From a phage, in the sequence record PZ179883.1: a stretch of 64,000 nt of DNA. The stretch is one strand, 5' to 3'. Made by a program: the position numbers and the translations under genes. Below, one piece after another: positions 47,826 through 50,414 of the stretch (its first letter is position 1; each line of letters begins with the position of its first letter). The notes under the pieces were generated by a model. That model did not search any database and was not told where the DNA came from. It saw nothing but the letters and a program-made list of their open reading frames with translations.

Positions 47826-48083
47826 TGTACGAAACGCCGGGATTCGAACCCGGTTATTAAGTAGTTGACGCTACTCAATATTTTTAAAAGGCCATATCTC
47901 GACCATATCCGAACGTTCCGTCAAAAACGCTACTCGGCTTACGGCAAAGATATTTCCTCGAATCGATAATTCGGTGCGCCGTTTCTGCTGTGATAGTAAA
48001 GAGCCAGAACACAGTAAAACTGTGGGAGGAAACTATACTCCAGGGAACATCAGTCCGACGACTTACCGGTAGCGACCCGGTTT
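47826..48083 (-). ncRNA. Putative stable small RNA region with a tRNA-like 3-prime module
   Basis: Minus strand has a canonical T-arm (CCGGG-TTCGAAT-CCCGG) and a 5 bp stem/7 nt loop, but no matching 5-prime acceptor strand; boundaries uncertain. Confidence 0.3.
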
Positions 48084-48084
48084 C

Positions 48085-48435
48085 TTAATATTCTTTTAAA
48101 GAATCAATATATTCACGGCGTTTACGCCACAAATCAATTGCTTCATACGCGGATTCAGCATTTCGAATTAGCCGGCATTTATGTAAAGACTTATGATTTT
48201 GATATTGTGTAGATAACGGAATTGTATCTAAAAGGTCTTTACGATCAAAATATTCGTAACCATCTAAACCAAATGAACGATTTTTGAGAAATTGCCAATG
48301 ACCATATTCGTTTTCGACATAAACATAATCTGCATGCTGATAAAGCAAATTAATTACACGTTCAGAAATAACAGTATCATTATGATTAAAATAGAATGTT
48401 AAATCATGAACTACTAAATAAACATTACCTTTCAT
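48085..48435 (-). CDS. Hypothetical protein embedded in the tRNA/stable RNA region
   Basis: 116 aa ORF between the tRNA-Arg gene and the stable RNA region. Confidence 0.4.
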   Translation of the reverse strand: MKGNVYLVVHDLTFYFNHNDTVISERVINLLYQHADYVYVENEYGHWQFLKNRSFGLDGYEYFDRKDLLDTIPLSTQYQNHKSLHKCRLIRNAESAYEAIDLWRKRREYIDSLKEY

Positions 48436-48451
48436 ATTTTCCTCACTTAAT

Positions 48452-48527
48452 TGGTCGAGGCAGTAGGGATCGAACCTACGACCTAGGACTTAGAAGGTCC
48501 TTGCTCTTCCTTCTGAGCTATGCCCCG
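48452..48527 (-). tRNA. tRNA-Arg (anticodon UCU), CCA encoded
   Basis: Hand-folded cloverleaf: acceptor CGGGGCA, anticodon loop CUUCUAA, T-arm GTAGG-TTCGATC-CCTAC. Confidence 0.8.
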
Positions 48528-48530
48528 TAA

Positions 48531-48612
48531 TTGGGGTGACCGATGGGAGTCGAACCCATGACTACGAGAATCACAATCACAATCTCGAGTTCTACCAACT
48601 GAACTACGGCCA
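48531..48612 (-). tRNA. Atypical tRNA-like gene: His-type (GUG) with a 6 nt tandem duplication giving a 13 nt anticodon loop; possible pseudogene
   Basis: Canonical acceptor, D- and T-arms and C73 discriminator; anticodon stem CGAGA/TCTCG encloses TTGTGATTGTGAT instead of 7 nt. Confidence 0.5.
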
Positions 48613-48727
48613 CATTAATACCTACTCCAACAATCAAGATGTCTTCACACGAAATTAAGAGAAGAGTGATCAGTTCAACCCCTATAATCGCGTCAAGTAG
48701 ATATTAATGTGACAGTTGTCACAAATT

Positions 48728-48802
48728 TGGCGGACGTGATAGGATTCGAACCTATAACCAATCGCTTAACAGGCGATCGCTCTGCCATTGAGCTACACAT
48801 CC
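48728..48802 (-). tRNA. tRNA-Asn (anticodon GUU), CCA encoded
   Basis: Hand-folded: anticodon stem ATCGC/GCGAT, loop CUGUUAA, T-arm ATAGG-TTCGAAT-CCTAT. Confidence 0.75.
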
Positions 48803-48806
48803 AAAT

Positions 48807-48894
48807 TGGTGGGGAGTGGTGGAGTCGAACCACCCGAGTCGCAATGACAATGGATTTACAGTCCACACCGCTACCTCTACGGGATAACTCCCCA
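48807..48894 (-). tRNA. tRNA-Tyr (anticodon GUA), class II with long variable arm
   Basis: 88 nt; anticodon loop CUGUAAA; T-arm GGTGG-TTCGACT-CCACC. Confidence 0.75.
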
Positions 48895-48902
48895 AATTAA
48901 TT

Positions 48903-48977
48903 TGGTGGCCCTGGGTGGAATTGAACCACCATCTGGCGATTATGAGTCGCTTGCTTGAACCTTCCAGCTACAGGGCC
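48903..48977 (-). tRNA. tRNA with CAU anticodon (Ile2/lysidine-type or elongator Met)
   Basis: Anticodon loop CUCAUAA; T-arm GGTGG-TTCAATT-CCACC; T4 tRNA-Ile equivalent by position. Confidence 0.7.
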
Positions 48978-48978
48978 T

Positions 48979-49054
48979 TGGTGCTGATTGACGGAATCGA
49001 ACCGCCGACCTTCTCATTACAAGTGAGTTGCTCTACCTACTGAGCTAAATCAGC
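48979..49054 (-). tRNA. tRNA-Thr (anticodon UGU)
   Basis: Anticodon loop CUUGUAA; acceptor GCTGATT/AATCAGC; CCA encoded. Confidence 0.8.
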
Positions 49055-49059
49055 AAAAC

Positions 49060-49149
49060 TGGCGGAGGCGATAGGATTTGAACCTATGAGTCGCCGGAGC
49101 GACTGCCGGTTTTCAAGACCGGTGCATTAAACCACTCTGCCACGCCTCC
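49060..49149 (-). tRNA. tRNA-Ser (anticodon UGA), class II
   Basis: 90 nt; anticodon stem CCGGT/ACCGG, loop CUUGAAA; long variable arm. Confidence 0.8.
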
Positions 49150-49151
49150 AG

Positions 49152-49225
49152 TCTCCGTGGCAGGATTTGAACCTACGACATTCTGCTCCCAAAGCAGACG
49201 CTCTACCAAACTGAGCTACACGGAG
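49152..49225 (-). tRNA. tRNA-Pro (anticodon UGG), 3-prime CCA not encoded
   Basis: Anticodon loop UUUGGGA; abuts tRNA-Ser, like the T4 Pro-Ser dimeric precursor. Confidence 0.8.
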
Positions 49226-49235
49226 TAAATTAAAT

Positions 49236-49309
<74 letters not shown>

Positions 49310-49314
49310 AAATT

Positions 49315-49401
49315 TGGTGCGAGAAGTGGGACTCGAACCCACAAGGAAATCATTCCGCAGCATTTTAAGTGCTGTGCCTTTACCAATTTGACCATTCTCG
49401 C
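49315..49401 (-). tRNA. tRNA-Leu (anticodon UAA), class II
   Basis: 87 nt; anticodon loop CUUAAAA; T-arm GTGGG-TTCGAGT-CCCAC; CCA encoded. Confidence 0.8.
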
Positions 49402-49407
49402 TCTATA

Positions 49408-50040
49408 TTATTTATTACGTGAAAAAGATTGTTCTATCAATTCTGGACACTTTCGTTCTATCCATTTTCTAGCTTTTTGTGGGCTTATACCTATTATTTT
49501 AGCAGCTTTACTAACCCATCCAAATTTAGAATAATCGATTTTAACTAATTCTTCGTAAATTTCATCAGTTAAAATCTTTTCATTAATATTTACCAGTAAA
49601 TGATATAATTTATTATCATTAGCAATTTTAATGAATCTTTTATAGTTTCCGCCTTTACTTAAACCTAATGAAGTAATTGCAGATGATATAGTAGCCGAAT
49701 TTAATAATGCGTTTAAAATTTCTTCATCACTAACATTATAACGCTTTTTATTATTTTTAATATTTTTACCAGCAAAAGTATCAGTTTGCGAATGGCAATT
49801 TGGACATAATAATCTTAAATTTGATTTAAGATGATTTTTGTTATTTCCATCAATATGGTCTAATTGCAGAACAATATGCTTATTTTGCCATTTTGAAATT
49901 TTACAAATTGCACACTCATATGGAAAAATATTTTCTTTTATTATTTTGTCTTTCAGCTTTCCTGTACTAAAATTTGGATGTTTTCCTTCAAAAATTTCAG
50001 CTAATTTAGTATCCATAATATAATTCCCAATTATTAACAA
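49408..50040 (-). mobile_element. HNH homing endonuclease
   Basis: 210 aa; LQLDHIDGNNKNHLKSNLRLLCPNCHSQTD is an HNH motif with zinc-binding cysteines; helix-turn-helix-like C-terminus; ends 6 nt from tRNA-Leu. Confidence 0.7.
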
Positions 50041-50126
50041 AGGCTCTCTAACAAGAACCCTTGATGATAGAGGGTATTAATCAGTGCGATATGAGTTAAT
50101 AATAACAAATAATTCTTAAAGCATAT

Positions 50127-50414
50127 TTACCATTTATAATAATACATATTTACGATGCATTCAAGACCCAAAGGATTCTTGAAAATATCATATTCAAGAG
50201 GACCTTTTTCTGTTTCAATAAAGAAATCAAAATTTACTGTATTAAATTTACGTTCTTCCTTCACTAATTTAACTTGAGAAGATGAACGGTCAATGTAAAC
50301 CTTTTCAACTTCAAAACATGTTAAAATGCCATAATCATCAATCAAAGCTTTAGCCGCGTCTTGATCATATTTATATCCATTTTCAATGGATGATACTTTC
50401 GCATAAAGAATCAT
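50127..50414 (-). CDS. Hypothetical protein
   Basis: 95 aa ORF. Confidence 0.4.
   Translation of the reverse strand: MILYAKVSSIENGYKYDQDAAKALIDDYGILTCFEVEKVYIDRSSSQVKLVKEERKFNTVNFDFFIETEKGPLEYDIFKNPLGLECIVNMYYYKW

Follow-up and report, generated by a model that had tools for sequence, protein, structure and literature searches.

An HNH endonuclease gene in place of tRNA-Gln at the head of the tRNA operon in some T4-like phages

What became of the glutamine transfer RNA (tRNA) gene that opens the tRNA operon of phage T4, and how did an endonuclease gene come to occupy its place in a related phage? The questions are raised by a 64,000-nucleotide (nt) stretch of phage DNA (sequence record PZ179883.1; the window, whose positions are used below) in which an open reading frame (ORF) for an HNH endonuclease lies directly before tRNA-Leu. 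Many Tequatrovirus (T4-like) coliphages, among them DCP2, L14, UTI-E4, and ACG-C40, match the 3.5 kb around this ORF at 97-99%, and by these matches the source phage is itself a Tequatrovirus. All genes in this region are on the minus strand; in the order of transcription, homologs of T4 trna.4, trna.3, and trna.2 are followed by the HNH ORF and then by ten tRNA genes. We consider it probable that the HNH ORF is a free-standing homing endonuclease gene that arrived a single time at the start of the Tequatrovirus tRNA operon and replaced most of tRNA-Gln, presumably by cleavage and homing. The features that define the replacement are:

49408..50016, minus strand: putative HNH homing endonuclease gene, 202 amino acids (aa) plus stop codon, with ATG at 50016..50014; called from homolog N termini, phrog_14736, the AlphaFold model, and the ratio of nonsynonymous to synonymous substitution rates (dN/dS)
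50021..50029, minus strand: 5' remnant of tRNA-Gln, TGGGAATTA, tRNA positions 1-9, by alignment with Elenatom, T4, and contigs L004-L006
49402..49407, minus strand: 6-nt spacer TATAGA between the HNH stop codon and tRNA-Leu, from the sequence and the junction alignment
49315..49401, minus strand: tRNA-Leu(UAA), intact and now the first tRNA of the operon, from ARAGORN and Rfam
48452..49309, minus strand: remaining tRNA cluster of Gly, Pro, Ser, Thr, Met(CAU), Tyr, Asn, His, and Arg, with no segB

The order in T4 is Gln-Leu-Gly-Pro-Ser-Thr-Ile-segB-Arg-rnaD-rnaC, in agreement with the original prediction, which had placed tRNA-Gln at this end of the T4 operon and the segB endonuclease gene within the cluster. 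The same-strand cluster of the window has ten tRNAs, namely Leu, Gly, Pro, Ser, Thr, Met(CAU), Tyr, Asn, an aberrant His, and Arg, with tRNA-Leu first. The ORF list and tRNA search of the window yielded no segB. Neither ARAGORN nor Rfam (at the gathering threshold) found a tRNA-Gln in the 64 kb, and a pattern search allowing up to 3 mismatches found neither half of one. The same ORF is present in ACG-C40, whose published genome encodes only 10 tRNAs; they all belong to this cluster, and tRNA-Gln is not among them. The loss of tRNA-Gln that had been predicted is thus borne out by covariance and pattern searches, which together with the ACG-C40 tRNA set also rule out its relocation elsewhere.

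To define the boundaries we aligned the junctions of HNH carriers (the window, ACG-C40, PBM-1, teqhad, a51, and EC.W15-4) with those of tRNA-Gln carriers (Elenatom, T4, and the three IMG/VR contigs L004-L006). The most direct comparison is with Elenatom, the flanks of which are 99.5% identical to the window; it lacks about 560 nt and has tRNA-Gln in that place, like T4. Measured from 100 nt upstream of a TTG codon at 50040 through tRNA-Gly, the locus is 905 nt long in all HNH carriers and 351 nt long in all tRNA-Gln carriers. On the left, HNH carriers read TAATAAT-TGGGAAT(T/C)A up to the breakpoint and TATT-ATG beyond it, and tRNA-Gln carriers read TAATAAT-TGGGAATTA and then GCCAAGTTGG. On the right, the HNH stop codon and spacer, TAA-TATA(G/A)(A/C), are followed by GCGAGAATGG of tRNA-Leu, and tRNA-Gln carriers have TTCCCAG-C before the same GCGAGAATGG. 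The alignment proposed with the original prediction therefore revealed a clean swap with a 9-nt 5' remnant of tRNA-Gln and perhaps also a 3' stub. Of the tRNA, about 62 nt (tRNA-Gln positions ~10 to ~70) gave way to about 616 nt that consist of essentially just the ORF. The last 3 nt of the spacer are AGA in the window, AGC in PBM-1 and a51, and AAC in ACG-C40, compared with CCCAG-C in tRNA-Gln carriers. These may be the final tRNA-Gln nucleotides plus the Gln-Leu spacer, in which case at most 2-3 nt of the tRNA 3' end were kept. Stub and spacer vary among HNH carriers at T/C (tRNA position 8), G/A, and A/C, as expected of sequence that has lost its function, and the T/C change in the stub suggests relaxed constraint. 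The adjacent Leu-Gly stretch (166 nt) is identical or has one mismatch in 9 of 10 relatives and two differences in L005.

How often did the swap occur? A tblastn search of 50,697 phage records with the HNH protein found 64 that carry it at 95% identity or more, all full length, and queries spanning the left and the right junction were each covered over at least 80% in exactly 64 records. As the 64 carriers have the same junction pair, one ancestral integration accounts for all of them. A tRNA-Gln query with short flanks was covered over at least 80% in 464 records, giving the HNH gene a share of about 12%. Among carriers, the HNH genes differ at 1-15 of 609 nt (0.2-2.5%). The tRNA-Gln genes themselves form two alleles, in about 290 and about 152 records, with 91.7% identity across the 96 nt of the query, short flanks included; the compared examples (L002 3000..3072 and L003 4459..4531) have several compensatory changes in the anticodon stem. 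The two alleles could reflect escape from an endonuclease or an anticodon nuclease.

The HNH gene does not share the history of its flanks. In most 150-nt blocks to either side of it, the tRNA-Gln carriers Elenatom and L004 do not differ from the window at all, so the gene is polymorphic for presence at a fixed site in near-identical genomes. The HNH carriers teqhad and PBM-1 have 18-32 differences per 150 nt (12-20%) from the window in trna.3/trna.4 and only 0-3 per 150 nt inside the HNH gene. Both flank types thus occur with either allele, the pattern of a mobile element moved by recombination. This hotspot also hosts another presence/absence cassette, a 171-aa ORF of unknown function (phrog_2290) between trna.2 and the promoter region (L011 3357..3872, L012 3713..4228, and L006), which occurs in both HNH and tRNA-Gln carriers.

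Is the product of this gene a plausible homing endonuclease? PHROG 14736, annotated as HNH endonuclease (202-position profile), matches the protein end to end (E=5e-124), and GenBank already labels the ORF "HNH endonuclease" or "F-TflIV"; the ORF forms a PHROG of its own. The Pfam HNH match is weak and below threshold (17.2 versus 21.4 bits; residues 53-85 of the 210-aa ORF that was scanned, equivalent to 45-77 of the 202-aa protein), and the C terminus has weak Pfam matches to HTH_29, P22_Cro, and HTH_17. Two regions stand out:

49792..49914, minus strand: predicted catalytic core, residues C35 to H75, with the pattern CxxC...DH...N...CxxCH (beta-beta-alpha-metal motif plus zinc knuckle), from invariant alignment columns
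49432..49524, minus strand: predicted C-terminal helix-turn-helix (HTH) module, approximately residues 165-195, GWVSKAAKIIGISPQKARKWIER, from weak Pfam HTH matches, a GWV...PQK motif, and model helices

In alignments of 7 and of 30 homologs, C35, C38, W43, H54, G57, N66, L67, C71, P72, N73, C74, H75, and T78 are invariant and D53 nearly so, bearing out the expectation of the original prediction that the HNH catalytic residues would be conserved. The protein has the catalytic His (general base), structural Asn, and metal-binding His/Asn of the HNH (His-Me finger) class in a beta-beta-alpha fold, and the zinc-binding CxxC...CxxC pair of the McrA-like subgroup (C35, C38, C71, and C74) is invariant. 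By motif, the product is a zinc-finger HNH endonuclease, with activity predicted accordingly. No GIY...YIG catalytic motif was found in the protein, and its Pfam and PHROG nuclease matches are to HNH families only. In an AlphaFold model from the 30-sequence alignment (mean predicted local distance difference test score, 89), the beta-beta-alpha core leads into two helical bundles, connected through linkers of low confidence. HNH fold matches were obtained with this model; a Foldseek search with the whole chain returned no significant match. The C-terminal module, which contains the GWV...PQK motif conserved in the homolog alignment and modeled helices at residues 167-175 and 179-189, is likely a sequence-specific DNA-binding domain. 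The model thus suggests an N-terminal zinc-finger HNH domain with two helical, HTH-like DNA-binding modules. Values of dN/dS are 0.00-0.03 among Tequatrovirus copies and 0.12-0.28 against homologs of other genera, and therefore the protein is under purifying selection.

The same locus is occupied in other T4-like lineages. Three closer full-length homologs from a big protein database (68%, 58%, and 58% identity) all lie at the head of the tRNA cluster in T4-like contigs, preceded by gp2, gp3, gp1, 57A, 57B, and homologs of trna.4 to trna.2. The 68% homolog, in a Marfavirus-like contig, begins 14 nt past an intact tRNA-Gln. Compared with the HNH-free Klebsiella phage VAC36, a Marfavirus (L014 3911..4620 versus L098 1612..1800), the cassette replaces the next gene, an 84-nt class-II-like tRNA with a long variable arm that is annotated as Asn(GUU); the right-hand sequence GAAGCGAGACC is common to both. 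Three nt after the HNH stop codon comes GCGAGACC, a Leu-like 5' end. The spacer after this tRNA-Gln holds AATTA, the same 5 nt that end the Tequatrovirus tRNA-Gln stub, hinting at a microhomology deletion. The 58% homologs are in contigs related to Erwinia phage Cronus (Roskildevirus), at the position that tRNA-Gln and a tRNA-like stretch occupy in Cronus itself (L015/L016 3900..4850 versus L099 1395..1950), and HNH-free Cronus also has the last ~24 nt of the HNH ORF, stop codon included. A further case lies within Tequatrovirus: PBM-1, which has the HNH gene, also has a Seg-like 202-aa GIY-YIG gene (phrog_314; L010 2751..3359, minus strand) in place of tRNA-Pro between tRNA-Gly and tRNA-Ser, with ~20 nt of degenerate tRNA-Pro 5' end left. 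This is a second, independent tRNA-to-endonuclease swap in the same cluster. Taken together, these cases indicate that single tRNA genes are recurrently replaced by endonuclease genes in these clusters.

Two side observations concern the same contigs. Tequatrovirus aside, the Cronus comparison reveals a tRNA-His that is present or absent at exact gene boundaries. The Marfavirus-like contig has ~400 nt of G+C-rich sequence without an ORF between the HNH gene and tRNA-Met (L014 4604..5010), at the start of which GCGAG...CTCGC can pair as in a tRNA. Neither Rfam nor ARAGORN has a match in this stretch; it could encode a stable RNA resembling a tRNA, like rnaC and rnaD in T4.

Several known systems resemble this one. 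The closest named relative is F-TflIV (hegA) of phage T5, with 34.7% identity over residues 16-184 (~84% of the protein; tblastn, E=5e-15). It belongs to the same HNH class (His-Me finger group 1, PF01844; PMC5714182), and the homology is accompanied by a shared tRNA-region niche, as the T5 gene starts 24 nt after tRNA-Ile2. F-TflIV is cited as a site-specific endonuclease (Akulenko et al. 2004) in PMC2330249. Unlike the gene described here, F-TflIV is from a member of the Demerecviridae, is longer as annotated in T5 (684 nt), and is not known to replace a tRNA gene; because identity is low, its target specificity cannot be transferred. The functional precedent is T4 SegB, a free-standing homing endonuclease encoded in the same tRNA cluster, the homing of which changes the tRNA repertoire. 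SegB prefers to cut the tRNA-Asn gene of T2L, which is missing from T4, and converts the T2L tRNA region (PMC2330249). A recent result is that SegB amplifies the T6 tRNA locus under Septu pressure (PMC13096335). However, SegB has a GIY-YIG fold unrelated to HNH, and its gene sits between tRNA-Ile and tRNA-Arg. T4 MobA-MobE are free-standing, intergenic or gene-adjacent members of the HNH class with presence/absence polymorphism between T-even phages (PMC2790892, PMC5714182); the likeness drawn here is one of class and lifestyle, and they occupy other loci, such as the nrd genes. HNH homing endonuclease genes are also conserved beside or inside tRNA arrays of mycobacteriophages and cyanobacteria, and it has been suggested that they spread these arrays (PMC6409571, PMC8421152). 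These genes (e.g., Anabaena all8564), compared here by description, share the linkage to tRNA arrays, but the reports describe neither replacement of a single tRNA nor flush placement at tRNA-Leu or tRNA-Tyr 5' ends. Our literature searches found no paper mentioning replacement of tRNA-Gln by an HNH gene.

How might the swap have come about? We propose that a single entry replaced tRNA-Gln, sparing 9 nt at its 5' end and perhaps 2-3 nt at its 3' end. When two related phages infect one cell, the enzyme would cut or nick the allele that still has tRNA-Gln, within the tRNA gene or beside it by analogy with SegB; the damage would be repaired on the HNH-bearing genome as template, so that the cassette is gained and tRNA-Gln lost. 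The genome with the cassette would then be immune because its target is deleted. The original prediction, that an endonuclease-mediated replacement removed tRNA-Gln, holds at the junctions as far as the replacement goes; that the endonuclease itself drove the replacement or its spread we infer from the population patterns and the SegB precedent. That the enzyme cleaves, where it does so, and that inheritance is biased are likewise predictions of this proposal.

Some observations weigh against it. The HNH allele is in the minority (64 versus 464 records), so the gene is not obviously sweeping. No clear HNH-linked co-conversion tract or flanking haplotype is visible in the 11 loci compared, in which the tRNA-Leu/tRNA-Gly flanks are near-invariant and thus uninformative. 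Haplotypes switch within ~25 nt upstream and ~200 nt downstream of the cassette irrespective of the HNH gene. Finally, the homolog in the Marfavirus-like contig coexists with an intact tRNA-Gln, which implies that the target is not wholly inside tRNA-Gln, at least for that enzyme.

The chief rival on the question of the target keeps the homing element but takes as its beacon the 5' edge of the class II tRNA gene downstream (here tRNA-Leu), and treats tRNA-Gln as a collateral loss. The window ORF stops 6 nt before tRNA-Leu, and the Leu-like 5' end 3 nt past the stop codon of the Marfavirus-like homolog, with tRNA-Gln untouched, fits this scheme. More support comes from remoter relatives. An IMG/VR protein search with the single HNH sequence found no relative, and a query with the trna.2 neighbor found 6 loci only, but an alignment-based scan found 80 loci (L018-L097), with a tRNA within 2 kb in 71 and within 700 nt in 67. 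After de-duplication at 80% identity, 59 of 64 clusters have a tRNA within 2 kb, and in 22 of the 64 a same-strand tRNA starts between -15 and +30 nt from the HNH stop codon. These abutting tRNAs are Leu in 13 and Tyr in 4 of the 22 clusters, versus 54 of 306 (18%) for Leu or Tyr among the other tRNAs of the same loci (Fisher p=1e-8); the loci were retrieved by two peptide patterns and are a non-random sample without a random-gene control, so the size of this effect is provisional. In these relatives the HNH ORF often stops a few nt from the start of a same-strand tRNA-Leu or tRNA-Tyr or overlaps that start by up to 9 nt. Two short relatives (L034 and L092) have a swapped domain order, HTH and then HNH.

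Against such a beacon, recognition within tRNA-Leu alone would leave the site in the carrier genome, the Cronus-related homologs abut no tRNA, and the abutment may instead reflect mRNA (messenger RNA) 3'-end processing or the tight packing of tRNA arrays, besides having been measured on the non-random loci just described. We regard the beacon account as unlikely on the whole, though the downstream tRNA may take part in recognition through its 5' portion or through the junction with it. A broader conjecture, for which we see a somewhat better though still doubtful case, is that this HNH lineage specializes in tRNA arrays: it would swap for single tRNA genes and dock at the 5' ends of class II tRNAs (Leu, Tyr), which might serve as both a beacon and an RNase P 3'-end signal.

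Alternatively, the protein could be an inactive or domesticated HNH/HTH protein, such as a regulator or a nuclease against hosts or competitors, with its patchiness arising from ordinary homologous recombination among co-infecting T-even phages. T-even genomes are mosaic, and the haplotype switches close to the cassette occur regardless of the HNH gene. Purifying selection is also stronger than a purely selfish low-frequency gene needs, and the gene is in only ~12% of records. However, catalytic residues and zinc ligands are intact in every lineage, the combination of a nuclease and modular HTH with exact presence/absence at one site is a hallmark of free-standing homing endonuclease genes, and the nearest characterized relative, T5 F-TflIV, is cited as a site-specific endonuclease, as noted above. 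We judge domestication to be improbable.

The reverse history, in which the HNH arrangement is ancestral and tRNA-Gln was inserted later in other Tequatrovirus lineages, could draw on the homologs that hold the same locus in other genera, but we give it very little credence. The carrier keeps the exact first 9 nt of tRNA-Gln, now drifting at position 8 (T/C); the 464 records with tRNA-Gln hold two diverged alleles of it, and Marfavirus and Roskildevirus have the gene as well; and all 64 HNH copies have one junction pair and diverge by at most 2.5%. Group I introns with homing endonuclease genes occur in T4 and in bacterial tRNA genes, and the first 9 nt of tRNA-Gln do precede the ORF, but an ORF inside an intron or insertion of a still functional split tRNA-Gln is ruled out for practical purposes, as only 6 nt separate the ORF from tRNA-Leu with no 3' exon among them, neither half of the tRNA occurs in the window (up to 3 mismatches), and there is no Rfam intron match.

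For the start of translation and the expression of the HNH gene, the relevant upstream features are:

50017..50040, minus strand: 8 extra codons of the TTG-initiated ORF, spanning leader, tRNA-Gln stub, and the 4-nt linker TATT
50038..50063, minus strand: leader hairpin CAAGGGTTCTT-GTTA-GAGAGCCTTTG, between the promoter-like site and the HNH start, also present in HNH-free phages
50099..50123, minus strand: candidate T4 middle promoter, with TGCTTTA at 50123..50117, a 12-nt spacer, and TATTAT at 50104..50099, conserved in all relatives
50127..50414, minus strand: T4 trna.2 homolog, the conserved upstream neighbor that anchors synteny, from the ORF list and comparison with T4 and ACG-C40

The ORF as delimited mechanically (49408..50040, minus strand) begins with TTG and encodes 210 aa. 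The original prediction of a 210-aa HNH protein ending 6 nt from tRNA-Leu at the operon head stands as to ORF, position, and spacer (stop codon TAA at 49410..49408, gap TATAGA, tRNA-Leu start at 49401), but probably not as to length. The TTG at 50040 falls in the 3' arm of the leader hairpin, and 50021..50040 is identical or near-identical in HNH-free phages; only the TATT linker at 50017..50020 belongs to the cassette. The ATG at 50016 is the RefSeq start in phage ACG-C40, and residue 1 of every full-length homolog aligns with it (MDTKLAEI, MKVELAEI, or MDLKTEEI). Because the first 8 codons are conserved leader and stub, and the ATG matches both homolog N termini and RefSeq, we take the protein to be 202 aa, probably starting at ATG 50016 rather than TTG 50040, with the 8 upstream codons probably untranslated. 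The GGGA of the stub, 8 nt before the ATG, may serve as a Shine-Dalgarno sequence.

The candidate middle promoter, whose TGCTTTA we take to resemble a MotA box, lies in the conserved upstream region and may direct transcription of both the HNH gene and the tRNA operon. A scan for sigma-70 promoters and terminators yielded nothing specific. If RNase P cuts at the 5' end of tRNA-Leu, the HNH mRNA would end there, 6 nt past the stop codon. The leader hairpin has a hypervariable loop and stem even in phages that show no other difference over hundreds of nt: the loops are GTTA, GCTT, TCCT, and GTTT, and the stems include G-U pairs and compensatory changes, irrespective of whether the HNH gene is present. 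The GGG of the stub can pair with an upstream CCC, but the leader fold is no better than that of shuffled sequences (z=-1.1).

Farther down the operon, the tRNA-His (48532..48613, minus strand) has a 6-nt tandem duplication, GATTGT-GATTGT, in its anticodon loop, because of which ARAGORN cannot name it. The duplication is missing in four close relatives and is in no record of the phage collection (best full-length match, 72/78); it could be a real loop-expanded tRNA, an inactivated one, or a sequencing error. Downstream of tRNA-Arg, where T4 has the stable RNAs rnaD and rnaC, a 116-aa ORF of unknown function is encoded (48085..48435, minus strand; phrog_3355), and the window from 48051 to 48950 has almost no similarity to T4.

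What does the swap mean for these phages? In itself, it is a fairly ordinary further example of mobile nuclease genes reshaping phage tRNA clusters, extending rather than changing current concepts. It adds a second, unrelated nuclease family that edits the same T-even tRNA cluster, with tRNA-Gln deleted outright in ~12% of sequenced relatives, at a time when phage tRNA genes are viewed as countermeasures to host tRNA-cleaving defenses. The natural near-isogenic pairs that differ by the HNH/tRNA-Gln swap are suited to measuring the cost of tRNA loss and the strength of homing drive. Of greater interest is the position-specific association with tRNA genes across the family: the habit of sitting flush at tRNA-Leu or tRNA-Tyr in arrays could explain part of the rapid turnover of phage tRNAs. 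If the lineage does specialize in tRNA arrays, such elements would be a chief cause of gains and losses of phage tRNA genes, which are now known to matter in the evasion of host anticodon nucleases.

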